A stretch of DNA of 64,000 bases, taken from positions 3,657 to 67,656 of the forward strand of contig SVLY01000002.1 in the NCBI GenBank assembly GCA_015067715.1, read 5' to 3'. Of the stretch, positions 2,736 to 42,092 are shown piece after piece. The position numbers and the translations under genes were made by a program. The stretch is from Oscillospiraceae bacterium (GTDB lineage: Bacteria; Bacillota; Clostridia; Oscillospirales; QAMX01). Below the pieces are notes generated by a model, which was given only the letters and a program-made list of their open reading frames with translations, did not search any database and was not told where the DNA came from. How positions within the stretch are numbered: position 1 is the first letter of the stretch; the number at the start of each line of letters is the position of its first letter.

Positions 2736-3803
2736 ATGGAAAAACTCAGAATAGCCCTTATCGGTGTTGGCGGAATGGGCAGCCATCACCTTTATTCCAG
2801 CCACGCCCGTAACCCCAGAGTGGAGATCGTCGCCCTTTGCGACATCATCGAAGAGCGCTGTGTTGCCGCCGCCAAAAAGCTTGGCCGCGACGACATTGCC
2901 ATCTACACCGACTACAAGGCTCTTATTGACAACGAAGAGCTGGACGCAGTTGACATTGCCACTCCCAACCGTTTCCACTCCATTATCGCGGTATACGCCC
3001 TTGAGCACGGTCTTCACGTTTTCTGCGAAAAGCCCGACGCTATCAATGTTGAAGAGGCTCTCAAGATGAAGACCGCCTCTGAAAAGGCGGGCAAGGTGCT
3101 CATGGTCATGCGCAACAACCGCTACACCCCGGGCTCAAAATACCTCAAAAAGTTTATCGCAGCCGGTGAAGCCGGCGACATCTACTGCGGACGCTGTGCG
3201 TGGATCCGCCGCCGCGGCATTCCCGGTAAGGGAGGTTGGTTTACCACCAAGAGCGAATCCGGCGGCGGTCCCCTTATCGACCTTGGCGTTCACATGATCG
3301 ACCTCTCCATCTGGCTCATGGGCAACCCCACCCCCGTTTCCGTCTCCGGCTGCACCTACTCCAAGTTTGCGGATAACGACGCCGAGTCCGACAGCGAGCA
3401 TTCCAAATTCGGCGATTCCGTCTCCAACGGCACCTTTGACGTTGAAGACCTGGCCATGGGCTTTATCCGCTTCGACAACGGCGCCTGCCTGCAGATCGAG
3501 TTCAGCTGGGCTTCCAACATCGTAAAGGAACAGCGCTACATTGAGCTTCGCGGCACAAAGGCCGGACTTACCTGGTTTGACAACGGCGACGTCGGCATCT
3601 ATTCCGAAGAGGACGGCAAGCTGGTCGACACCGTTCGCAGCTGCGACATGGGCAACGGCCACGACGAAGCCCTGCGCCACTTTACCGCCATCGTTCTCGA
3701 CGGGGCAGAGAAGGACTACGTTCCCCAGCAGGGTCTTGACATGATAAAGATCCTCTGCGCCATCTACGAGTCTGCCCAGACCGGCAAGGAAGTTATTCTC
3801 TAA
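2736..3803 (+). CDS. Gfo/Idh/MocA family oxidoreductase
   Basis: GGAGG at 2721 then ATG at 2736. MEKLRIALIGVGGMGSHH Rossmann N-terminus and an EKP motif (VFCEKPDA). Confidence 0.85.
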   Translation: MEKLRIALIGVGGMGSHHLYSSHARNPRVEIVALCDIIEERCVAAAKKLGRDDIAIYTDYKALIDNEELDAVDIATPNRFHSIIAVYALEHGLHVFCEKPDAINVEEALKMKTASEKAGKVLMVMRNNRYTPGSKYLKKFIAAGEAGDIYCGRCAWIRRRGIPGKGGWFTTKSESGGGPLIDLGVHMIDLSIWLMGNPTPVSVSGCTYSKFADNDAESDSEHSKFGDSVSNGTFDVEDLAMGFIRFDNGACLQIEFSWASNIVKEQRYIELRGTKAGLTWFDNGDVGIYSEEDGKLVDTVRSCDMGNGHDEALRHFTAIVLDGAEKDYVPQQGLDMIKILCAIYESAQTGKEVIL

Positions 3804-26678: not shown

Positions 26679-27350
26679 GTGCGCGTGCTTTTGGCAGAGG
26701 ACGAAAAAAGCCTTGCAAGGGCGCTGGTGAAGATTTTTGCGGCCAATAATTTTTCTGCGGACGCGGTATACGACGGGCGGGATGCCCTTGACTATATCGA
26801 ATCCGGAAGCTACGATGCCGCCGTGCTTGACGTTATGATGCCGGGAATGGACGGCTTTGAGGTCCTGCGTGAGCTTCGGAGAAGGGGAAATACCGTCCCG
26901 GTTCTCATGCTCACCGCCAGATCCGAGGTGGAGGATAAGGTCAACGGGCTTGACCTTGGGGCAAATTACTACCTCACAAAGCCCTTTGACGCCCGGGAGC
27001 TTGTTGCCGCTCTTCGTGCCATAACCCGGAAAGGCGGAGAAACGGATTCCACCCTGCGCCTTGGAAATACCCTGCTTGACAGATCAACCTACGAGCTTTC
27101 CGCCCCGGGGGGTAGCTTTCGCCTTGCAAACCGGGAATTTCAGATGATGGAGATGTTCATGAGCGCCCCGAAAAAGATTATTTCCGGCGAGCGGTTCATG
27201 GAGGTCATATGGGGCTTTGACAGCGACGCTGAGATGAGCGTGGTCTGGGCGTATATTTCCTATCTCCGGAAAAAGCTTTCCGCTTTGGGTTCCGATTTGA
27301 GCATAAAGGTCCACAGAAACGCGGGCTATTCTCTGGAGGAGCAGAAATGA
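26679..27350 (+). CDS. OmpR-family response regulator
   Basis: MRVLLAEDEKSL with receiver Asp in LDVMMPGMDG. C-terminal winged helix (YISYLRKKL...VHRNAGYSL). Confidence 0.9.
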   Translation: MRVLLAEDEKSLARALVKIFAANNFSADAVYDGRDALDYIESGSYDAAVLDVMMPGMDGFEVLRELRRRGNTVPVLMLTARSEVEDKVNGLDLGANYYLTKPFDARELVAALRAITRKGGETDSTLRLGNTLLDRSTYELSAPGGSFRLANREFQMMEMFMSAPKKIISGERFMEVIWGFDSDAEMSVVWAYISYLRKKLSALGSDLSIKVHRNAGYSLEEQK

Positions 27351-28573
27351 TAGACAGGCTGAAAAGACGTTTTTCTGTTCTTGCCGTTGGGGCGCTGACG
27401 GCGGCGGTGGCTCTGATGGTGCTGGGCATGAACCTTATAAGCTTTGGAGCGCTGGTGCGGGAGGCGGACGGAACGCTGGCGTTTATGTCGGAAAACCGGG
27501 GGCGTTTTCCCGAGCCGGACAGGGGTGCTCCGGGCAAGCTTCCCCCGGGAATGTCCCCGGAGGTGCCCTATGAGTCAAGGTATTTTTCCGTGACCGTCTC
27601 TCCGGACGGGGGAATAATGCAGCCCGAGACCAGCAAGATCGTCGCTGTGGACAGGGATACTGCCCTTGAATACGGAAAAAAAGCCCTTGACCGCCGGACG
27701 GAAAAGGGCTTCGTCGGTAAATTCAGATACCTGAAATATGCCGAGGGGGATAATACAAAGATACTGTTTCTGGATTGCAGAAGGTCGTTTGATGCCTTTA
27801 CCTCGTTTTTCTGTTCGGGGCTGGCCGTTTCCGCAGTTGGACTTGGGGTGCTGTACGTTGTAGTGCTGTTCTTTATCCGGCGCATACTTCGCCCTGTTGA
27901 GGAGAGCTACGAAAAACAGAAGAGGTTCATAACCGACGCCGGACACGAGATAAAAACTCCGCTTACGGTAATAAACGCAAACGCCGCACTGCTGGAGCTT
28001 GAGCTGGGTGAAAACGAATGCGTAAGCGATATTTGCACGCAGACAAAACGGCTGACCGCACTTACAAACGACCTTGTTGAGCTTTCCAGAATGGATGAGG
28101 GCGATGCCTCCCGGGAGATGAGCCTGCTTCCTCTCTCCGAGCTGACATCAGAGGCCGCAGAGCGATTCCGTGGGCCGGCAAAGGCCGCTCAAAGACAGCT
28201 TTTTGTAAGCGTGGAGGAGGGTATCTCCCTTCGGGGAAACGGAAAGAGCCTGATGCGGATGTTTGATATTCTCCTTGAAAACGCGCTGAAATATTCGCCG
28301 GAGAAGGGGAGCATCAGCCTTTCACTTGAAAAACGCGGCCGGACGGCGGAGCTGAGGGTCGAAAACGACACCGCACGCCCCGTTCCCGAAGAGTCGCTTT
28401 CCCGGGTGTTCGACAGGTTTTATCGGGCAGACGCCTCGCGAAATTCCGAAACCGGAGGCTTTGGCATCGGGCTTTCCGTTGCAAAAAGCGTTGCCGATGC
28501 CCACGGGGCAAAAATATTTGCTTTCTCTGATGGGGATCACCGCTTTGGGATCTCCGTTCGCTTCCAGATATGA
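27347..28573 (+). CDS. sensor histidine kinase
   Basis: Overlaps the response-regulator stop. Two TM helices flank a ~140-aa extracytoplasmic domain. H-box DAGHEIKTPLT. N and G boxes (LENALKYS, GGFGIGLSV). Confidence 0.9.
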   Translation: MIDRLKRRFSVLAVGALTAAVALMVLGMNLISFGALVREADGTLAFMSENRGRFPEPDRGAPGKLPPGMSPEVPYESRYFSVTVSPDGGIMQPETSKIVAVDRDTALEYGKKALDRRTEKGFVGKFRYLKYAEGDNTKILFLDCRRSFDAFTSFFCSGLAVSAVGLGVLYVVVLFFIRRILRPVEESYEKQKRFITDAGHEIKTPLTVINANAALLELELGENECVSDICTQTKRLTALTNDLVELSRMDEGDASREMSLLPLSELTSEAAERFRGPAKAAQRQLFVSVEEGISLRGNGKSLMRMFDILLENALKYSPEKGSISLSLEKRGRTAELRVENDTARPVPEESLSRVFDRFYRADASRNSETGGFGIGLSVAKSVADAHGAKIFAFSDGDHRFGISVRFQI

Positions 28574-28628
28574 GCAAAAAACGAGCCGCAGATTTAGCGT
28601 GATACTCTTTTCGGAGTATCACGCAACT

Positions 28629-28779
28629 CTATTCGCCTGACGGCGAGTTATATTGTGCCTTCGGCACAGTTATATTATGCTACGCATAGTGATATTGTCC
28701 TGCGGACAGTTTATGGCGAATAGAATATCACTATTCACGCTGACGCGTACGAGCATATCACTTAACAGACAAAAAGAAA
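28629..28779. repeat. second copy of the mini-hairpin array, opposite orientation to 20160..20326
   Basis: CTATTCGCCtgacGGCGAG TTATATT GTGCCttcGGCAC AG TTATATT ATGCtacGCAT AG TGATATT GTCCtgcGGAC ... GGCGAATAGAATATCACT ... ACAGACAAAAAGAA. The same ends and spacers appear in the reverse complement of the 20.2-kb array, with different hairpin stems. Confidence 0.85.
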
Positions 28780-34117: not shown

Positions 34118-35779
34118 TTAGCGGTATATACCTTCGTAGATCGCAAGCTGGCGCTGGACTGAGGCGCGAAGGGCTTCGATGTCCGGGTAAGCGGGGTCTT
34201 CAAGGAAGGTGCGCATGTTGTAACCATAGGCCTCTGTAGACTCGGCGTCGAAGATCCACAGGGCGTTTTTATATCTCTTGGCCCACTGGCTAAGGGCGAG
34301 AGCCTCTTCGCGGCAGTCGGAAAAGTCGGCGTTGAAATTTTCGTAAAGGTCAAAGGTTGCCCCTGTCTGAAGCTCTGCGGCGATCTCCAGGGAGTTTTCA
34401 AGGTCGAATTCCGTGGGAATGCGGTAGAGGGGATTGGGGTAGATAACGGCGTCCATGGGGTTTGCAAGGTCTGTGCGGACGCCGTTTTCAACGGTATAGC
34501 TCACGCCCTCGAGCCCCATGCACAGCGCCTGACCCAGAGCTTTGTCCGTAAGCGCAGAAATTGCAAAGTCCAGAGCCAGCTCTTTGTTTTCAGAGCCGCT
34601 TGCCACGAAAAGCGAGCATTCCGGGCCGGTTACCGAGGGGATATTGCTCAGGGGTACAACAACTCTGGGGGCGTTATGCTTTTGAAGCTCAGCATCCTTT
34701 TCAAGCTGCTTCTGGGCGATCTTGGGGTCGGTGTAGGATTCAAAATAGTAGTACATGGCGGAATCTGCCGGGTCGTTCAGCGAAAGATAACCCTCTTCCA
34801 CGATCTCTGCGTAGCCCTGCATTATCTCTTCGAACATGGGCACCTCCCAAAGGGCGAGCACCTCGGGTCCGTTTTCGGTTTCGTGGACGTAGAGCGGAAG
34901 CATGTTTATCTGGGTATAGCTTTCGTCCAGCAAAACGGAATTTATAAGCCCTTCGACGCTCGCGGTCGCCGCCAGGGCCATTTTGTTGGAATAGAGATCA
35001 CCTATGTGTGCTATTTTGTCGAGGTATGCTCTGCCGGATGTGAACCTTGATAATCTATGCTCCGGAGCTATGTTCAGAAAAACGATGTCACGAACGCTTT
35101 GGGGCTCTTCTCCCGGGAATCCGTAGCCGTTTCCGCTGGCAAGATAGCCTGCCATGCTGCTGACCTCAAGGGTGGTGGCCGAAAAACCGTATATCCTGCC
35201 GTTGTCGGAGTTTACCTTCAAAAAGGCTTCCCCGTAAATATCGCTTACGGCTTTAAGCTGGTCTTCGGTTGCCATTGAGTCGACGGGAACGATAAGCCCG
35301 TCGTTAACGTAGTCCCAAAGGGTGTCGCCGGGAATGCCCGCAAGGCCGGAAATATTGGGTCCGGGGGCAATAATGTCGCATCTGCCGCCGGCATCAACGT
35401 ATTCTCTGACCTGCATTTCAAAGGTCTTTCCCTTGCTGAGTCCGTAGTTTCCAAAGCTGTAGACCATGAGGGAAAAACCGTAGCCGTTGTCAGAGAGCCA
35501 GGTGTTGAGGGCATCGTTAAGCTCAAGGGGATAGACGTTTCCGCTGTAGCTCTGGCGGATCAGCACCAAAACGGGCTTGCCGGGGTAAGCCTTTGAGATC
35601 GCATCGTAGAGTTCGTTTGTATCGCGCACGACGTTTCGCATGCTGTATTTTTGGTTCAGATCAAATTTTTGGGGATATTGAAACTGTGTTTTCAGGTCAG
35701 GGTTTGCCGGCGCCTTTCCGCAGGCGGCAATGGACAGGGCAAGCACCAGACATAAAATTATCAAAGCTGTCTTTTTCAC
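34118..35779 (-). CDS. large extracellular solute-binding-like lipoprotein (orphan, no adjacent permeases)
   Basis: GTG at 35779 after AGGAGG. Lipobox LALSIAACG. 553 aa. Size and composition resemble family-1 solute-binding lipoproteins, but the assignment is weak. Confidence 0.65.
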   Translation of the reverse strand: MKKTALIILCLVLALSIAACGKAPANPDLKTQFQYPQKFDLNQKYSMRNVVRDTNELYDAISKAYPGKPVLVLIRQSYSGNVYPLELNDALNTWLSDNGYGFSLMVYSFGNYGLSKGKTFEMQVREYVDAGGRCDIIAPGPNISGLAGIPGDTLWDYVNDGLIVPVDSMATEDQLKAVSDIYGEAFLKVNSDNGRIYGFSATTLEVSSMAGYLASGNGYGFPGEEPQSVRDIVFLNIAPEHRLSRFTSGRAYLDKIAHIGDLYSNKMALAATASVEGLINSVLLDESYTQINMLPLYVHETENGPEVLALWEVPMFEEIMQGYAEIVEEGYLSLNDPADSAMYYYFESYTDPKIAQKQLEKDAELQKHNAPRVVVPLSNIPSVTGPECSLFVASGSENKELALDFAISALTDKALGQALCMGLEGVSYTVENGVRTDLANPMDAVIYPNPLYRIPTEFDLENSLEIAAELQTGATFDLYENFNADFSDCREEALALSQWAKRYKNALWIFDAESTEAYGYNMRTFLEDPAYPDIEALRASVQRQLAIYEGIYR

Positions 35780-35804
35780 GTTGTGTCCTCCTTTTTTTGT
35801 GTGT

Positions 35805-35959
35805 TTATTGCAGAACGAAGGAATAAGTCTCGGGATCGTAGAACCAGGGCTCGTCTATTGTTCCGTCGAGAATATCCTCTTTGGTGACGTAGAGAAGTTT
35901 CTGGGGGTAGAAATAGGTCACGTCCCTGTAGTTTTCCTTTACGGTGTAACAGTCGGGCT
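35805..35959 (-). repeat. near-identical ~155-nt 3' coding segment shared by paralogs A, B and C (copy A)
   Basis: By-eye alignment with 38338..38492 and 39476..39630 shows only a handful of substitutions. Similarity collapses immediately upstream. Confidence 0.85.
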
Positions 35960-37157
35960 CAAGGGTTCCGTCCGGGAGTATAAGATGATAGGTGAATATC
36001 AGCCCCTTTTCTGTTTCGCTGAAGAGTGTCATGGCATAGCCGGGAATGTCTACAGTTATTCGCTCGGCGGAGTCCGTGTTAACCAATTCAAAGGACTCAA
36101 AGCCGGGGTCTATAGAATAGCGGACTCCGTTGTGGTGAAATTTTTGACTGTAAGATTCTGTTTCGATGGTTAACTCAGACGGGTCGATAAGCTCTTTGGT
36201 GCTTATCCGGCAATATGACGTTTTCCCACCTGCGTAGCAGCAAAAATAATCCCTCAGGGGGTATATATCAAATATTTCAGTCCCGATGGGGAGCTTATTC
36301 CGGGATATCAGCTCATCAAGTATCACGGCACAGTCGTATACTTCGGTTTCCCCGGTTTCGATGTCAAAAGTGTACGCAGTTGCAGATTCTTCGTAAGCAA
36401 AAGAAAACTTATCTTCTGTTGCATCGTTGATTATAAAGGAGTTACTGGGAATAGTGACAGGCCTGGCAGAAACCATCCCCCATTCCTTTTTTTCGAGGTC
36501 GTAACGTGCCACCCAGTACGAATAGCGGAATTCATCCTGATTCATGGATGTCAATTCATCGATGGTCAGATTGACGTCGGTTGCAAGAGCGAAAAGACTG
36601 AGGTATATTTGTGTTCCGTAAATAACGTAAGATGATGCTGTGGAGCTGAAGTGTTTATCGAATATTTCGCCGTCATAACCCAACAGCTCTGGAGTAAAAC
36701 TAACTGTTTCGTGCTTGATTCCGTCGAGTCCGTAGTAAACCGCTTCGAGCTGGCCGTTTTTGTTGTGGGCATCTCTTATTGAAAAGATGTTGTCTTTATA
36801 TATGCCTGTGATAAGCGACGGACAAAATCCTTCGTATACCGTTCCGAAACAATCTGTTGAAGAATGGTCACAGATTGCATTGGTGCACAATGGGATGAAT
36901 GACTTCAACTCTTCGTTGAACAGATGCCTCATGATCACCCTCGTTTTTTCTCCGCCGTATTCCTTGCCTTCAAGGTCGTTAATTGCCATTTCAAGGTATG
37001 CACCGCCTTTTACGGCCATACCGTTGTCAATGACGGGGATGCGAACTGTGGGAAAGTCGGTGAGAAAAATATCGTAGGCATATTCTTCGCCCCTTCCGCA
37101 GGCGGCAAGGGGGAGTATGCTGAGGAGGGCGAGGAGGAGAAATAGAATACGTTTCAA
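35805..37157 (-). CDS. lipoprotein paralog A of an uncharacterised family (Cys/His cluster, conserved C-terminus)
   Basis: AGGAGG plus 7 nt then TTG at 37157, by analogy with paralogs B and C. Lipobox ILPLAACG. LCTNAICDHSSTDCFG. C-terminal YTVKENYRDVTYFYPQKLLYVTKEDILDGTIDEPWFYDPETYSFVLQ. Confidence 0.75.
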   Translation of the reverse strand: MKRILFLLLALLSILPLAACGRGEEYAYDIFLTDFPTVRIPVIDNGMAVKGGAYLEMAINDLEGKEYGGEKTRVIMRHLFNEELKSFIPLCTNAICDHSSTDCFGTVYEGFCPSLITGIYKDNIFSIRDAHNKNGQLEAVYYGLDGIKHETVSFTPELLGYDGEIFDKHFSSTASSYVIYGTQIYLSLFALATDVNLTIDELTSMNQDEFRYSYWVARYDLEKKEWGMVSARPVTIPSNSFIINDATEDKFSFAYEESATAYTFDIETGETEVYDCAVILDELISRNKLPIGTEIFDIYPLRDYFCCYAGGKTSYCRISTKELIDPSELTIETESYSQKFHHNGVRYSIDPGFESFELVNTDSAERITVDIPGYAMTLFSETEKGLIFTYHLILPDGTLEPDCYTVKENYRDVTYFYPQKLLYVTKEDILDGTIDEPWFYDPETYSFVLQ

Positions 37158-37226
37158 ACTGTGGCCTCCTTTTTTGGGGAGATAGGGGAGCGGCATTGGT
37201 TAGCCACTCCCCTAAGATTACTGCTT

Positions 37227-37715
37227 TTACTCTGTTACGACCGGGGGAGTGTATGCGAGAGGAATGTTGCCGTCGTTGCTTCGAGCTTGGCTTGCATACT
37301 CTACTCCGTTATGTGTTACGGAGATTTTGTAGTAGTTTTCAACTCCAAGAAGAGCAACTGAATAGTCATCAAGATTTTTTGTGACATTGGCTATAGCTTC
37401 ATTGGGGTTGGAATCTGATGCTGTGAAAGTCATGGATCTGTAATTGTTGAGATTGCTCCAAGGAGCTACCCAACATTTCACAGAAACATAAGCGAATGCA
37501 GATTCGCATTCGTGAGTTACATCGGCGGTTGCGCTTGCGATTTGGGTGCTATTTCCATATACGCCACCTCCGTACTGACCGCTGAAGTCTGCGCTACAAC
37601 CGCAATTAGGACGGGAGAAATTCATGTGGCTTATGGGAGCGGCGCTTGCCGGGATGGAGAGGAGAGCGGTCATTGTTATTACGGCGACAAGGACCAGGGT
37701 GAGTGTTCTTTTCAT
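37227..37715 (-). CDS. small secreted protein, function unknown
   Basis: AAGGAGG then ATG at 37715. Signal peptide MKRTLTLVLVAVITMTALLSIPASA. 162 aa with 5 Cys. No family recognised. Confidence 0.65.
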   Translation of the reverse strand: MKRTLTLVLVAVITMTALLSIPASAAPISHMNFSRPNCGCSADFSGQYGGGVYGNSTQIASATADVTHECESAFAYVSVKCWVAPWSNLNNYRSMTFTASDSNPNEAIANVTKNLDDYSVALLGVENYYKISVTHNGVEYASQARSNDGNIPLAYTPPVVTE

Positions 37716-37915
37716 TGTTTGTCGTCCTCCTTAAGATGAGTATAAATAGGTTATAAGGGTGTGTGCTTCAAAACAGACACAAAAAAACAGCCGCATTACT
37801 CCTGTGTTTTTGTGGCGGCAACCGCGAATGGACGGTGTGCGCTTTCCCAAAAGCAGGAATTAATACGGCTGCCTTAAAAATGTCGGGTGTGTTTTGAAGG
37901 TCAGTCTGATTGGTC
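37716..37915 (-). promoter_or_regulatory. conserved structured 5' leader, copy 2 (rod-like hairpin, U-tract, flanking inverted repeats)
   Basis: About 185 nt are nearly identical to 40826..41016. In the minus-sense RNA, CUUCAAAACACAC pairs with GUGUCUGUUUUGAAG and CAGCCGUAUUAAUUCCUG pairs with CAGGAGUAAUGCGGCUG, followed by U7. Confidence 0.6.
37781..37871 (-). terminator. terminator-like long hairpin + U7 inside leader copy 2
   Basis: 17-bp stem between 37854..37871 and 37788..37804, with a GC-rich base (CAGCCG/CGGCUG). The A-run at 37781..37787 on the plus strand gives U7 in the transcript. It lies ~65 nt upstream of the start codon. Confidence 0.5.
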
Positions 37916-38156
37916 TGCAACATATGCCCGTATCAGTCCATGGCATATGAGGGGTTCTTAAGTTGGGTTGACTACTTCTGATTGGAGCCGTTCTTAAAGA
38001 GGAACGGGTTCTGACTCTCCTTAGAGCTCGAACGGCTGAAGACTCCAAGGGGAGGCGTTGATGTGGAGGATATGGAAAACCAGTTTGCACATATCTTGTT
38101 ACCTCCTGACAGATATGGATTTTAAATTTTCAGAGGAATATATTCCCTCTAAAAAT

Positions 38157-38185
38157 ATAATAACATAAACTGTTTAATGTGTCAA
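38157..38185 (-). promoter_or_regulatory. sigma-A type promoter (TTGACA-17-TATTAT) of the 37715..34118 operon
   Basis: On the reverse strand, TTGACA is at 38185..38180 and TATTAT at 38162..38157. The near-palindrome AGAGGAATATATTCCCTCT (38132..38150) follows immediately. Confidence 0.55.
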
Positions 38186-38337
38186 TAGGTGATTTTGAAA
38201 AATCCGCTGTATAAGAATAAAACTTAGAAATAATTACCGGGCGGGGAGTAAAACTGGGTGTGACCTGAGGCAAGTTGTCAGGGAAAATTGAGAGGGAGAA
38301 ATTGACTTCTTGTTTCGCTGTGGTATTATGAGGCTAT

Positions 38338-38492
38338 TTATTGCAGAACGAAGGAATAAGTCTCGGGGTCGTAGAACCAAGGCTCGTCTATTGTTCCGTC
38401 GAGAATATCCTCTTTGGTGACGTAGAGGAATTTCAGGGGGTAGAAATAGGTCACGTCCCTGTAGTTTTCCTTTACGGTGTAGCTGTCGGGCT
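38338..38492 (-). repeat. near-identical 3' coding segment (copy B)
   Basis: See 35805..35959. Confidence 0.85.
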
Positions 38493-39450
38493 CGAGTTTT
38501 CCGTCTTCTGAAATTGTTCGCCAATAAAAGATCATGCCCTTTTCGGTTTCAGAGCAAAAAGTCAGAGAGCGGTTTTCTGTGGGTACCGACTGTTGTTTAC
38601 CCGTGACGATATTGGTCAGTATGAGCTTTTCGGAAATGGGTTCGACCAGATACAGCTCTCCGTTTTGTTCGAAGCGGTTTATGTTTTGGGCAAGCGCAAG
38701 GTAGGGGGAGTCGATGCTGAGCAGATCATTCTCAGAAAAATCCGTGAAATGTTCGAAAGAAAGATAGGGTTCGGAATTCAATTGGGTCCAGTTTTTTTCT
38801 TCAAGATCGTAGCAGAGTATCCAGTGGGCATATTCGATTTCTCCGTTTTCGAGAAACAGTGAGTCTTCGTAGCCGGGGGCTACTGTTGATATTTCGAAAT
38901 AAAGCTTTGTTCCGAAGCTGAGGTAATCGTTGTTGAGCATAGACCCGTTTTTGAGGGATTCTCCGTTGGGCATTGTAAGCTCAGGGGTGTAATCCACCGT
39001 GTCTCGGATCATCCCGTCGAGATCGTAATATATAACTTCTACACGGTCCTTATCGTTAGGTGACTCTCTTACGTCGAAAATAAGATCCTTATAAACGCCG
39101 GTTATTGTGAGGGAGTAATTTCCGTGGTAGGCATTGCCGAAACAGTCTGCGTTGCCGTGAGCGCAGGACGGTTCCATGCACAGGGGCATGAGGGTTTTTG
39201 TTTCTTCGTTAAAGAGACATCGCATTGCAACCCAGCTTTCTTCGGAATTTCGTTCTTTTCCCTGAAGGTCTTGTATATGGGTGTTAAGAAATGCGCCTCC
39301 CTTTATCGGCATACTTCTGGATATAATTGGTACATACATTTTCGGGTATTCCGGTGGGATGTAATCGTAGGTGTATTCCTCCGTCTTCCCGCAGGCGGCG
39401 AGCGGGAGTAAGCTGAGAAGGGTGAGAAGAATAAGAAGAATGCGTTTCAC
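38338..39450 (-). CDS. lipoprotein paralog B
   Basis: AGGAGG plus 7 nt then GTG at 39450. MKRILLILLTLLSLLPLAACGKTEEYTYDYIPPEYP, LCMEPSCAHGNADCFG, and the same C-terminal ~47 aa as A and C. Confidence 0.75.
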   Translation of the reverse strand: MKRILLILLTLLSLLPLAACGKTEEYTYDYIPPEYPKMYVPIISRSMPIKGGAFLNTHIQDLQGKERNSEESWVAMRCLFNEETKTLMPLCMEPSCAHGNADCFGNAYHGNYSLTITGVYKDLIFDVRESPNDKDRVEVIYYDLDGMIRDTVDYTPELTMPNGESLKNGSMLNNDYLSFGTKLYFEISTVAPGYEDSLFLENGEIEYAHWILCYDLEEKNWTQLNSEPYLSFEHFTDFSENDLLSIDSPYLALAQNINRFEQNGELYLVEPISEKLILTNIVTGKQQSVPTENRSLTFCSETEKGMIFYWRTISEDGKLEPDSYTVKENYRDVTYFYPLKFLYVTKEDILDGTIDEPWFYDPETYSFVLQ

Positions 39451-39475
39451 GTTGTGTCCTCCTTTTTTTGTGTGT

Positions 39476-39630
39476 TTATTGCAGAACGAATGAATAAGTC
39501 TCGGGGTCGTAGAACCAGGGCTCGTCTATTGTTCCGTCGAGAATATCCTCTTTGGTGACGTAGAGGAATTTCCGGGGGTAGAAATAGGTCACGTCCCTGT
39601 AGTTTTCCTTTACGGTGTAGCAGTCGGGAC
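39476..39630 (-). repeat. near-identical 3' coding segment (copy C)
   Basis: See 35805..35959. The 25 nt downstream of the stop (39451..39475) are identical to 35780..35804. Confidence 0.85.
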
Positions 39631-40825
39631 CTATACTTCCGTCTTCAAGCAGATCTCTGTAGCTGAATATTATTCCGTTTTCGGTCTCGCTGAAAAATGA
39701 CATGATTATCCCGGGAGTTTCAACGTCTGTTCTTTCGTTGGTGTTACAGTTGGTAAAGGTGAACTGACCTGCCATTGATTCTGTTGTGTAAAGGCATTCG
39801 CTGTACGTGAATCTATTGGTTCCGCCAACGGTCAGATAACGTGCTTCAGACGGGTCAATAAACTCTTTTGTACTGATGCGGATATAATAAGTTTTGTCTC
39901 TCTGATAGCAGTCGAAGAAATCTCCCGTGGGATAAATACCGGCGATCATAGTTCCTGTTGGCAGCTCGCCTTTGGCGATCTTTTCGTCAAGAATTGCGGC
40001 ACAGTCATATTCCGTGACTTCTCCGGTGGATATATCCACTGTATATCCCACACCGTTGTTTTGAAGTGTAAGCATACTTTCGTTTGCATCTCTGAAATTC
40101 AAAAACTGGGCATCGGTGGAATGGGGGAAGGTGGCAATATAGCTCCATTCCCTGTTGTCAAGGTCATAACACACGACCCAATGGAAGTACTTAAGCTGTG
40201 ACTGGTCTAACAACACCCATTCGTTATCTCCGGTGTTCAGTGCAGATAGCTGTATATATACTTTTGATCCAATAACAGTGAATATTTGGGACATATATAC
40301 TGTGTTTTCCAAAGGGGAGCCGTCGGGGAAGAAGAGCGCCGGAGTGAATAGAACGGTATCCTTTATTGTGCCGTCGAGACCGTAGTAAACTGTCTCAAGC
40401 AAACCGTTTGCGTTAGTGTGCCCTTTTTGTTTATACGTCTCTTTAATAATAAACACACTGTCCTCGTAAATTCCGGAATAGGACGTATTTGAATGACCGT
40501 ATAAATCACCGAAGCATCCGACGGTATCGTGAGTGCAGTTCGGGTCTGTACACAAGGGGGCAATGGTTTTTGTATGTTCTGAAAATATGCTGACCATGGC
40601 CACATCAGACTGCTCTGAGTTTTTTTCCTTTCCGTCAAGTTCGTGTTTAGCTATATACAGAAAGGCGCCGCCTTTTATCTTTTTGTTTGCAAGACTTCCG
40701 AGACTCATTCTGATCTCGGGGTATTCCGGTGGGATGTAATCGTAGGTGTATTCCTCTGTCTTCCCGCAGGCGGCGAGCGGGAGTAAGCAGAGGAGGGCAA
40801 GAAGAATAAACAGAATGCGTTTCAC
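39476..40825 (-). CDS. lipoprotein paralog C
   Basis: AAGGAGG plus 7 nt then GTG at 40825. MKRILFILLALLCLLPLAACGKTEEYTYDYIPPEYP, LCTDPNCTHDTVGCFG, and the conserved C-terminus. Confidence 0.75.
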   Translation of the reverse strand: MKRILFILLALLCLLPLAACGKTEEYTYDYIPPEYPEIRMSLGSLANKKIKGGAFLYIAKHELDGKEKNSEQSDVAMVSIFSEHTKTIAPLCTDPNCTHDTVGCFGDLYGHSNTSYSGIYEDSVFIIKETYKQKGHTNANGLLETVYYGLDGTIKDTVLFTPALFFPDGSPLENTVYMSQIFTVIGSKVYIQLSALNTGDNEWVLLDQSQLKYFHWVVCYDLDNREWSYIATFPHSTDAQFLNFRDANESMLTLQNNGVGYTVDISTGEVTEYDCAAILDEKIAKGELPTGTMIAGIYPTGDFFDCYQRDKTYYIRISTKEFIDPSEARYLTVGGTNRFTYSECLYTTESMAGQFTFTNCNTNERTDVETPGIIMSFFSETENGIIFSYRDLLEDGSIGPDCYTVKENYRDVTYFYPRKFLYVTKEDILDGTIDEPWFYDPETYSFVLQ

Positions 40826-41016
40826 GTTGTGTCCTCCTTAAGATGAGTATAAATGGGGAATACGGGTGTGTGCTTCAAAACAAACACAAAAAACAGCCGC
40901 ATTACTCCTGTGTTTTGTGGCGGCAACCGCGAATGGACGGTGTGCGCTTTCCCAAAAGCAGGAATTAATACGGCTGCCTTAAAAATGTCGGGTGTGTTTT
41001 GAAGGTCAGTCTGATT
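40826..41016 (-). promoter_or_regulatory. conserved structured 5' leader, copy 1
   Basis: Over the ~150-nt core it matches 37716..37915 apart from one substitution and two 1-nt homopolymer indels. A short divergent block lies near the SD. Confidence 0.6.
40888..40976 (-). terminator. terminator-like long hairpin + U6 inside leader copy 1
   Basis: Stem between 40959..40976 and 40894..40910. The A-run at 40888..40893 on the plus strand gives the U-tract. Confidence 0.5.
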
Positions 41017-41084
41017 AAATTTCGTCATGCGCCCAATCAGAGTAATGGCACATGAGGGAGTATTTGGTTATTGTTCACAGGTAT

Positions 41085-41113
41085 ATGATAACACATAATA
41101 TTGAGTATGTCAA
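41085..41113 (-). promoter_or_regulatory. sigma-A type promoter (TTGACA-17-TATCAT) of the 40825..38338 operon
   Basis: On the reverse strand, TTGACA is at 41113..41108 and TATCAT at 41090..41085. Confidence 0.55.
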
Positions 41114-41196
41114 CAGCTTCGCTGTGGATCTGCAAAAATTTATTTTATTTTCAGGGGATTATCCGGATCTGAATTGGCGGACGGAAAATGCGGAGC

Positions 41197-41234
41197 AAAT
41201 TAAACCGCCCGAAGAGAAAAAACTCTCCGGGCGG
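41197..41234 (-). terminator. rho-independent terminator of folD
   Basis: CCGCCCGAAGAG (41205..41216) pairs with CTCTCCGGGCGG (41223..41234). In the minus sense it is followed by UUUAAUUU. Confidence 0.65.
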
Positions 41235-41240
41235 CGGGCG

Positions 41241-42092
41241 TTATTTTGCGTTTTTTGCGGCAAGCGCGGTATGGGCGGCGAGAATGGCGGTGGTGACGGA
41301 GCCGACACCTCCGGGAACGGGGGTGATGGCCGAAACGATGGGCTCGGCGGCGTCGAAATCAACGTCACCGCGAAGGCGGCCGGCGGCATCGTCCCAGTTT
41401 ATACCGACGTCAACGATGACCTGTCCCGGGGAAACGTGGTCTGCGCTTATCATGTTCATGCATCCGGCGGCGGCCACGACGACGTCCGCTTTTTTTGTCA
41501 CGGCGGCAATGTCCGGGGTGCGGGTGTGGCAAACGGTGACGGTGGCGTTGCGGGCAAGCAGAAGCATTGCGGCAGGCTTGCCAACGACGAGGCTTCTGCC
41601 AACCACGACGGCGCTCTTTCCGGTGCAGTCAACGCCGTAATGGTCCAGCACCCTTACCGCCGCCTCGGCGGTACAGGGGCAAAAGCCCTTTCCGGAGCCT
41701 GTGAACACGCCGGCAAGACTGCCCTCGGTGATGCCGTCAACGTCCTTTTCGGGGAGAAGAGCATCACGGACGGCCTTGAGATCAAGGTGGCGGGGCAGGG
41801 GGCTGAACACCAGAATACCGTGGACGGAGGGGTCGGAATTCAGCCTTTCAACGGCGGCCATAAGCTCCTCCTGGGTGGCGTCTGCGGGCAGAAGCTCCCG
41901 GCGGAAGGCTATGCCAACGGTCTCACAGCGCTTTGCGGCGCCACGCTCATAGGCGAGATCGTCGCTCCGCTCACCAACGCGGAGCACGGCAAGGGTTGGG
42001 GTCGTGCCTTTTTCCTTAAGCTGGGCAACCAGCGCAGAGGTCTCCTGGTCGATGGCGGCGGCAACCTCGGCGCCTTTCAGTAAAGTGGCCAT
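41241..42092 (-). CDS. folD: bifunctional methylenetetrahydrofolate dehydrogenase/methenyltetrahydrofolate cyclohydrolase
   Basis: MATLLKGAEVAAAI...PTLAVLRVGERSDDLAYERGAAKRCE...VHGILVFSPLP...GRSLVVGKP...TPVPGGVGSVT is a full-length FolD pattern. Confidence 0.9.
   Translation of the reverse strand: MATLLKGAEVAAAIDQETSALVAQLKEKGTTPTLAVLRVGERSDDLAYERGAAKRCETVGIAFRRELLPADATQEELMAAVERLNSDPSVHGILVFSPLPRHLDLKAVRDALLPEKDVDGITEGSLAGVFTGSGKGFCPCTAEAAVRVLDHYGVDCTGKSAVVVGRSLVVGKPAAMLLLARNATVTVCHTRTPDIAAVTKKADVVVAAAGCMNMISADHVSPGQVIVDVGINWDDAAGRLRGDVDFDAAEPIVSAITPVPGGVGSVTTAILAAHTALAAKNAK

Follow-up and report, generated by a model that had tools for sequence, protein, structure and literature searches.

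What directs the expression of two neighbouring operons that begin with almost the same untranslated leader? The question is raised by a stretch of 64 kb from an Oscillospiraceae bacterium (positions 3,657 to 67,656 of contig SVLY01000002.1, assembly GCA_015067715.1; the whole stretch is called the window below). In it, a segment of ~190 nucleotides (nt) at 40826-41016 is repeated at 37716-37911, and each copy stands before an operon encoding secreted proteins or lipoproteins. The original prediction, which was made from the letters of the window alone, described a duplicated, structured leader and suggested a shared cis-regulatory RNA or DNA switch. We conclude that the segment is a real, conserved and uncatalogued structured leader of a rare rumen Oscillospiraceae lineage, and we favour, with slightly better than even confidence, the reading that it is a 5'-leader module with an intrinsic terminator at its core, working as an attenuator.

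The duplicated leader and its fold

The duplication was borne out in both extent and detail. A repeat search returned an exact match of 104 nt (37808-37911 = 40913-41016), together with further blocks of 29 nt, also exact, and of 63 nt at 92 % identity. The shared part begins at 41016 and 37911, the latter 4 nt inside the boundary of 37915 that had been proposed. In a base-by-base comparison, the first ~150 nt of the two copies differ by A4/A5, T6/T7 and one T/C, i.e. by the single substitution and two 1-nt indels that had been claimed for the core. Four further substitutions are found at 154-162, just 5' of the Shine-Dalgarno sequence, and small differences adjoin the start codon. Neither the 28-nt apical sequence of the segment nor its 8-nt box (see below) has a third site within the 64 kb.

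All features of the region 34118-42092 read on the minus strand. Leader 1 (~250 nt) follows promoter P1 (TTGACA-17-TATCAT, 41085..41113) and leader 2 (~440 nt) follows promoter P2 (TTGACA-17-TATTAT, 38157..38185). Both promoters had been placed at these positions before; each matches the consensus at 11 of 12 positions and is TG-extended, and they are the two top-scoring promoter-like sites across 34-43 kb. Downstream of them stands the upstream hairpin H1, formed by CAUGUGCC / GGCGCAUG in copy 1 (41026..41054) and by CAUAUGCC / GGCAUAUG in copy 2 (37921..37949), with loops of 13 nt each (AUUACUCUGAUUG and AUGGACUGAUACG). Between the copies one H1 pair is altered on both sides (G-C to A-U) and another on one side (U.G to U-A), and the compensatory changes are thus as first described, one double and one single. 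The box AGACUGAC (41005..41012 and 37900..37907) comes next, and then a long hairpin, the rod, which includes an outer A-rich/U-rich helix (40873..41004 in copy 1, 37766..37899 in copy 2). The proximal leader of copy 1 (40826..40872) carries the Shine-Dalgarno sequence AAGGAGG (40833-40839), runs to the GTG start of a gene for 449 amino acids (aa) and falls within the duplicated segment; that of copy 2 (37716..37765, Shine-Dalgarno sequence at 37726-37732) runs to the ATG of a 162-aa gene. Each rod accordingly sits between a near-consensus TG-extended promoter and a Shine-Dalgarno sequence, and 47-50 nt separate the rod end from the start codon in both leaders.

The minimum-free-energy folds of the two leaders had energies of -76.6 kcal/mol (leader 1, z-score -5.52) and -133.4 kcal/mol (leader 2, z-score -6.89), and no shuffle was as low in either case. 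The long rod anticipated by the original prediction, with its outer helix, 17-bp helix, UUUUG/CAAAA helix and apical hairpin, is the minimum-free-energy structure. What had been missed is the run of U residues: the 17-bp helix has the base GGCAGCCG.../...CGGCUG, and this is followed at once by UUUUUU(U)GUGU(U/C)UGUUUU, in which the first run is U6 or U7. With U6/U7 directly 3' of a G+C-rich 17-bp helix, the rod looks like an intrinsic terminator inside a 5' leader. In copy 1 the terminator hairpin proper (GGCAGCCG ... CGGCUG) spans 40894..40978 with an energy of -37.9 kcal/mol, and its U-rich tail (UUUUUUGUGUUUGUUUU) spans 40877..40893; in copy 2 the hairpin lies at 37788-37873 with a U7 tail from 37787, and the whole rod has an energy of -58.5 kcal/mol. 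The U-tail scores of the copies were 5.62 and 5.78, respectively, compared to a random mean of 2.13, a 95th percentile of 3.27 and a 99.9th percentile of 4.76. The outer helix consists of the U-tail pairing with an A-rich stretch 5' of the stem. A simple terminator scanner missed the rod because its loop and stem exceed the limits of the scanner. The transcribed strand thus has a G+C-rich stem directly before a U-rich tract, located ~50 nt 5' of the Shine-Dalgarno sequence, and this terminator lies between the predicted promoter and the start codon, where an attenuator is expected.

Conservation in related lineages

Homologous leaders were found by fetching metagenome contigs which encode homologues of the regulated proteins. 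In the close strains L008 and L078, folD is followed by the same leader. Four other metagenome lineages contain diverged homologues of it, placed upstream of genes whose products are homologous to the small secreted protein (46-60 % identity), and all four keep the rod and the U-rich tail while the stem sequences differ. In L009, L016/L017 and L020 the box AGACUGAC, the stem base GGCAGCCG...CGGYUGCC and the U-rich tail are kept, and the inner stems differ in both sequence and length; the box is invariant in both window copies, L008, L009, L016 and L020. L015/L018 are more diverged: their box variant reads AAGCUGAC, they have an H1-like hairpin (GCCAUAUG.../GGCAUAUGGC) and their terminator is compact (CGGCGGCAAAAG.../...CUUUGCAGCCG, then U7). 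Across all lineages the hairpin energies range from -16 to -38 kcal/mol and the U-tail scores from 3.8 to 6.1, above the random 95th percentile. TG-extended TTGACA-17-TAATAT promoters are found in L018 and L020, roughly 150-320 nt upstream of the box. As the strong promoter, the leader and the terminator recur there, the architecture of promoter, long leader, terminator and Shine-Dalgarno sequence is conserved.

The original prediction had made its case depend on homologues with structure-preserving variation, and these exist. Six leaders were aligned with MAFFT (alignment A3), a consensus was derived with RNAalifold, and a covariance model was built from the same alignment. The consensus contains 31 pairs, five of which have changes on both sides. 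Paired cells amounted to 93.4 % in A3, compared to 47-59 % when the partners were slid by 1-3 columns, and the covariation score was 0.363 compared to ≤0.16 for slid partners, a value reached by none of 500 shuffles. The covariance model scored the diverged leaders at 93-96 bits and gave no extra copy in the window or in the other fetched loci. The consensus is a single unbranched rod with no branch points, in which only the box, the stem base and the tail are conserved positions, a make-up that is typical of an intrinsic terminator.

The leader appears to be lineage-restricted. A scan for the DNA pattern AGACTGAC-N-GGCAGCCG-N-CGGYTGCC gave 36 metagenome, 21 genome and 2 viral matches, all in unrelated and mostly G+C-rich sequence, and none of them passed the covariance model. 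The exact apical core was not found in viral contigs, and GTDB representative genomes, scanned at the protein level with the lipoprotein alignment as guide, gave no relatives. A generic mobile repeat, which had been named as a possible outcome, does not fit what was seen: there are two copies in 64 kb, in the same context, and the homologues are always upstream of the same gene family. This comparison covered the window, the related loci and the metagenome, genome and viral collections. The principle by which the leader would act is familiar, not new, leader terminators being among the commonest regulatory devices of Firmicutes.

No known RNA family was placed on the leaders by scans of the window and of the homologous loci with Rfam 15, in agreement with the earlier failure to match the core to a known class. 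At gathering thresholds nothing in the 64 kb fell on the leaders. With the region 37600-41300 and E ≤ 10, two chance matches were obtained, one in distal leader 2 (38094-38184) and the other on the opposite strand inside the gene of lipoprotein C, neither of them on the shared rod; in ten homologous loci at E ≤ 1 there was nothing on the leaders. This bears on the idea of a small-molecule riboswitch, in which an aptamer would be hidden in the rod and the terminator would serve as expression platform. Such a device would be in keeping with a strong promoter and a terminator downstream of it in the 5' leader, and with the conserved GGCAG, which is able to pair with an apical CUGCC-like segment aligned across the lineages by MAFFT. 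However, the sequence enclosed by this alternative GGCAG/CUGCC helix is not conserved between lineages, the rod has no multi-stem junction and no conserved unpaired nucleotides of the kind that mark an aptamer, Rfam gave no match on it even at E ≤ 10, and the regulated surface proteins have no metabolic link. A riboswitch therefore seems to us extremely improbable.

The sole Rfam match in the window at gathering thresholds was a Gut-1 RNA (RF01706) at 28624-28700 (+ strand), with 54.9 bits against a gathering score of 50. It follows closely downstream of a gene (27347-28573) that encodes the histidine kinase in an OmpR-type two-component pair, and fits an origin from a gut or rumen Firmicute.

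Strand bias and the proposed mode of control

Is the conserved pairing a property of the transcript or of the DNA? In nine of nine sequences the gene-sense fold was more stable than the antisense fold. The values were -56.4 (sense) and -45.9 kcal/mol (antisense) for the copy 1 rod of the window, -43.4 and -25.5 kcal/mol for the L009 leader, -41.7 and -35.1 kcal/mol for L020, and -34.7 and -24.6 kcal/mol for L015; the leader of L016 was nearly symmetrical (-48.7 and -46.0 kcal/mol). The sense folds contain 6-10 G.U pairs and the antisense folds 1-5, with the exception of L016, which has three on both strands. At the DNA level, the perfect inverted repeats beyond the terminator base measure no more than 7-10 bp. 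The stability of the sense strand and the asymmetry of the G.U pairs argue for selection on the transcript, and against a recombinase site, a cruciform or a mobile palindrome.

These data bear directly on an invertible DNA switch of the cwpV type, in which a site-specific recombinase would act on the outer inverted repeats (CTTCAAAACA.CAC / GTGT.TGTTTTGAAG). The orientation seen would contain the terminator and be OFF, whereas the inverted one, a hairpin without following U residues, would be ON, and flipped junctions of CTTCAAAACACAC with AAAAAACAGCCGCATTAC and of CTTCAAAACACAC with AAAAAACAGCCG would be implied. The geometry resembles that of cwpV in Clostridioides difficile, with 47 nt here between the end of the right repeat and the start codon, and phase variation typically acts on variable surface proteins, such as these genes encode. 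The computed inverted orientation also loses the U-tail (score 2.04 compared to 5.62), which does not discriminate, because any terminator loses its tail when flipped. However, a single orientation was seen in ten rod-spanning assemblies (the window twice, L001, L002, L004, L006, L008 and L078, plus L009, L016/17 and L020), these being consensus assemblies in which a minority orientation could be hidden. The 7-10 bp repeats merely form the base of an uninterrupted rod, which G.U pairs maintain on one strand only, and an inverted repeat used by a recombinase would not give such a strand asymmetry. A Pfam scan detected no recombinase domain among 30 open reading frames (ORFs) of the 20.4-55.3 kb region; the neighbours scanned include folate enzymes, threonyl-tRNA synthetase (ThrRS), oxidoreductases, the OmpR-type two-component pair and ABC components. 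We consider an invertible switch highly improbable. Of the shared, undescribed cis-regulatory RNA or DNA switch that was first proposed, the cis-regulatory part stands, since the element is in the 5' leader of both operons and the description is a fair one; for the DNA switch there is no positive evidence.

The attenuator reading may be pictured as follows. A strong sigma-A-type promoter, P1 or P2, would start the transcript, and the RNA past the variable hairpin H1 and the single-stranded box would fold into the long rod, whose G+C-rich base immediately precedes the U-rich tail. By default, RNA polymerase would stop ~50 nt before the ribosome-binding site and release a short leader RNA, ~200 nt long if started at P1 and ~375 nt if started at P2, so that the genes of the beta-propeller lipoproteins and the small secreted protein would be expressed only on read-through of the terminator. 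As the same module stands on both operons, both would respond together. We infer that termination occurs here, that it is conditional and that it is relieved by a signal, which is most likely a trans-acting antiterminator recognising the box and/or H1. Such a factor might stabilise a small alternative hairpin between the box (CUG[A]CC) and AAGGCAG, the sequence at the 5' base of the terminator stem, or it might modify the elongating polymerase, like NusG paralogues such as LoaP.

The box is the only conserved element outside the terminator, and a hairpin between it and AAGG(G)CAG (CUG[A]C(C/U) pairing) can be folded from the nascent 5' part of the leader in the window, in L016/L020 and in L009. 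It is present in the minimum-free-energy fold of the window transcripts when these are cut before the 3' arm. In L015/L018 a different upstream segment of 18 bp complements the 5' arm of the terminator, and the apical CUGCC-like segment could likewise compete for the terminator 5' base.

Several points weigh against attenuation. Promoters and termination alike have only been predicted. The hairpin proposed as antiterminator is weak (-5.5 to -7.9 kcal/mol, z-scores of -0.4 to -2.2) and its pairs are mostly invariant, without real support from covariation, and a factor would therefore be needed to hold it; the Pfam scan gave no candidate regulator gene among the same 30 ORFs. Intrinsic terminators are seldom as long as the rod, which measures 57-86 nt in four lineages (35 nt in L015/L018), and the U-tails of L016 (UUUGCGAUUUUUU) and L009 (UUGUGCUUUUUU) are interrupted. 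L015/L018 are too diverged for the covariance model, and with only ~4 independent lineages the significance of the covariation is not assessable in the manner of R-scape, so that its support is descriptive and no statistical proof.

It is also conceivable that the structured RNA acts without any condition, as a leaky constitutive terminator which ends a short leader RNA or small RNA (sRNA), as an RNase III site, or as an mRNA-stabilising hairpin. In each of these forms it would set the expression level and sense nothing. A rod that is plain and paired almost throughout, lacking junctions and conserved nucleotides in its loops, would suit this role, and helices of such length are classic RNase III substrates. 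The energetic weakness of the antiterminator alternative points in the same direction, as do small ORFs with a strong Shine-Dalgarno sequence found directly after the promoter in leader 2 and in L015/L018. Yet these ORFs are not conserved in sequence and there are none in leader 1, L016/L017 or L020. The 8-nt box, moreover, stands just outside the rod and is kept across lineages whose remaining leader has diverged beyond alignment, so that stem formation alone does not account for its conservation. In Firmicutes, a strong terminator behind a near-consensus promoter usually signals regulated attenuation, which also speaks against a non-conditional RNA. Altogether we regard such a role as unlikely, while attenuation remains the reading we prefer.

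The small ORFs deserve a comment of their own. The one in the distal part of leader 2, directly after the promoter (38021..38092, 23 aa, MCKLVFHILHINASPWSLQPFEL, strong Shine-Dalgarno sequence), is of uncertain part in the mechanism, and the 34-aa ORFs of L015 (246-350) and L018 (345-449) are analogous to it but unrelated in sequence. In L015/L018, and in L009 with an ORF of 16 aa, the UGA in the box is the stop codon of the small ORF. No ORF ends at the UGA of the box in either window copy, L017 or L020, and a leader-peptide mechanism was hence rejected as a general explanation. An ORF inside the 3' arm of the rod was discarded because the T6/T7 difference shifts the frame between the copies, and a candidate internal promoter (TTGAAG ... 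TATACT), 3' of the rod and 5' of the Shine-Dalgarno sequence, because its spacer is 21 nt and the motif is unconserved in the homologues.

Two further hairpins were noted. A terminator-like hairpin of folD (41241-42092), the gene with which the order of features starts, lies at 41235-41204, upstream of P1. At the extreme 5' end of the predicted P2 transcript there is a perfect 13-bp hairpin (38122-38160; UUUUUAGAGGGAA UAUAU UUCCUCUGAAAAU), absent in leader 1, which may be a 5'-end stabiliser.

The genes behind the leaders and known systems

Which proteins would be under such control? Leader 1 precedes lipoprotein C (449 aa, 39476-40825) and its paralogue lipoprotein B (370 aa, 38338-39450). 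Behind leader 2 are the small secreted protein (162 aa, 37227-37715), a further paralogue, lipoprotein A (463 aa, 35805-37196), and a lipoprotein of 553 aa (34118-35779). The lipoproteins downstream of the leaders carry the lipobox LAACG, and sequence searches of the regulated proteins against Pfam, NCBIfam and the PDB returned lipoprotein signal peptides only. The families are small: among 5.8 billion sequences, the lipoprotein gave 16 clusters and the small secreted protein eight, and one family member is named as coming from a Ruminococcaceae/Oscillospiraceae metagenome-assembled genome. AlphaFold2 predicts a beta-propeller for lipoprotein C (predicted local distance difference test, pLDDT, 84) and a beta-sandwich for the small secreted protein (pLDDT 72), and for these models Foldseek gave only generic matches, to beta-propellers and beta-sandwiches.

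Both families have invariant residues. The lipoproteins share the motif Cys-x4-Cys-x-His-x4-Cys (C91, C96, H98 and C103 in the 449-aa protein) near the N-terminus of the predicted beta-propeller, which may be a metal site or a disulfide cluster. The small secreted protein and its homologues P0018-P0024 have four invariant cysteines and an invariant C-terminal PPVVTE; this tail, modelled with low confidence, may be a sorting or processing signal.

The lipoprotein region is hypervariable. The DNA of L008 and L078 is 97-98 % identical to that of the window through folD, the leader and the signal peptide, but the lipoprotein that comes next (2952-4292 in L008, 1317-2531 in L078) is only 43-47 % identical to that encoded at 39476-40825 of the window, and similarity resumes in the last ~45 codons. 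The three lipoprotein paralogues of the window also share a 199-nt block at the 3' end and a 121-nt block at the 5' end. This suggests a cassette-like replacement of lipoproteins between conserved ends. In L001 (728-920) and L004 (158-350), two independent metagenome contigs of the Joint Genome Institute (JGI), P1 and distal leader 1 are fused via the shared core to the 162-aa gene. The fusion corresponds to an exact 3.1-kb deletion that removes lipoproteins C and B together with P2, and its flanks match the window at 100 % identity. As the contigs are joined through the 104-nt exact repeat, they may be assembly chimeras, and the deletion is thus either a real variant of a subpopulation or an assembly path through the repeat. 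Whichever way it is read, the leader marks the 5' boundary of the hypervariable lipoprotein region.

Could the copies then be simply a recombination module or the remnant of a mobile palindrome, i.e. substrates or products of lipoprotein-cassette shuffling with a hairpin that is incidental or acts in DNA? The clean 3.1-kb deletion between direct copies in L001/L004 would speak for it, as would the position of the leader at the 5' edge of the hypervariable region in L008/L078. The L001/L004 join may, however, be chimeric as stated above, and L002 has the arrangement of the window. The duplicated unit continues through the Shine-Dalgarno sequence to the start codon instead of ending at the termini of the palindrome, and there are no further copies in the 64 kb or in the related loci. 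In diverged lineages the element stands at an unchanged place upstream of the same gene, with its pairing preserved in the RNA, and homologous recombination at any conserved flank would yield the same mosaic. We find this account very unlikely; it is compatible with attenuation and does not replace it. An integron attC-like site was rejected, since the core GTTRRRY / RYYYAAC was not visible on inspection at the rod ends, no integrase was present among the scanned ORFs and the 'cassette' has its own promoter.

Some smaller repeats were noted in this region and its relatives. An element of ~45 nt (GTCATTCCGAG...GTGGGAATCCGT) occurs in the intergenic regions of L009 (1-45) and L011 (955-1000), and the motif TTTTGCGAGACGG is shared by L009, where it immediately precedes the Shine-Dalgarno sequence, and the distal leaders of L017 and L020; both may be small dispersed repeats of the lineage. 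Lipoproteins C and A are followed, behind their stop codons, by spacers (39450-39476 and 35779-35805) that read UAAACACACAAAAAAAGGAGG on the minus strand and are ~80 % complementary to the U-rich 3' arm of the rods, for which reason they were reported as inverted repeats. This complementarity is probably a low-complexity coincidence.

If the attenuator reading is true, an uncatalogued family of cis-regulatory leaders is added from an uncultured rumen lineage, and the predicted beta-propeller lipoproteins and the small cysteine-containing beta-sandwich protein are likewise absent from Pfam and NCBIfam. The 8-nt box and the terminator, being common to two operons, provide a concrete handle for finding the regulator. 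The locus also offers a case of wholesale replacement of surface lipoproteins between near-identical strains, which may matter for evading phages or the host. A more far-reaching version, which we think unlikely, is that a new antitermination system, mediated by protein or RNA, serves the hypervariable surface beta-propeller lipoproteins of rumen Oscillospiraceae: the box AGACUGAC and H1 would recruit a factor, and the identical leaders would also be recombination points at which lipoprotein cassettes are swapped or deleted behind a fixed expression site. Were this so, attenuation control would be coupled to antigenic variation at the population level in a Gram-positive commensal.

How does the leader compare with systems already described? 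Like the leader attenuators of Firmicutes in general, whether riboswitch, T-box or protein-controlled, it is long and untranslated, follows a strong sigma-A promoter, has a G+C-rich hairpin and U-tract a short way 5' of the Shine-Dalgarno sequence and contains a 5' segment able to pair with the 5' arm of the terminator. It differs in having no recognisable sensor domain and a far longer terminator hairpin, which reaches into the A-rich/U-rich outer helix. The ribonucleic antiterminator (RAT)/terminator leaders of the BglG/SacY/LicT antiterminator family have a short hairpin that overlaps the 5' base of the terminator stem, to which the hairpin between the box and AAGGCAG would correspond, and their principle is that a protein-stabilised hairpin prevents termination. 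Unlike in RAT leaders, the loop here is large (10-11 nt) or, in L009, has an extra stem, and no genes of the phosphotransferase system (PTS) or of a PRD-domain regulator were found among the ORFs scanned; no similarity of the leader to the RAT consensus was established.

Among phase-variable genes, cwpV of C. difficile has a promoter upstream of an invertible segment, imperfect inverted repeats lying 57 bp ahead of the start codon, and an intrinsic terminator found in the OFF transcript only (PMC2784873). The leader studied here is similar in its upstream promoter, in the inverted repeats of the 5' untranslated region ~50 nt before the start codon, in an intrinsic terminator that depends on orientation, and in having a variable cell-surface protein as target. 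In contrast to cwpV, the perfect repeats outside the terminator base are 7-10 bp instead of 21 bp, only one orientation was observed, the whole segment is one continuous rod with G.U pairing specific to the RNA strand, and a recombinase was not found among the 30 nearby ORFs.

The closest parallel is with LoaP, a NusG paralogue that targets the dfn and mln leaders of Bacillus velezensis (PMC12691694). In that system, too, two operons carry a near-identical element with a small hairpin upstream of the leader terminator, and read-through depends on a trans-acting protein that binds a hairpin with a UNCG tetraloop (PMC12691694). The present leaders share the near-identical element on two operons and the small hairpin upstream of a 5'-leader terminator. 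They differ from the LoaP leaders in that H1 has 13-nt loops and a sequence not conserved across lineages, in that no NusG-like gene was detected among the 30 ORFs of 20.4-55.3 kb scanned against Pfam, and in that the genes encode surface proteins whereas the LoaP targets are polyketide or polysaccharide pathways. Because the UNCG hairpin and a loaP gene are absent here, the likeness is one of working in a similar way, not one of membership. On these comparisons, the nearest functional analogue of the duplicated leader would appear to be a protein-dependent antitermination leader such as those targeted by LoaP.

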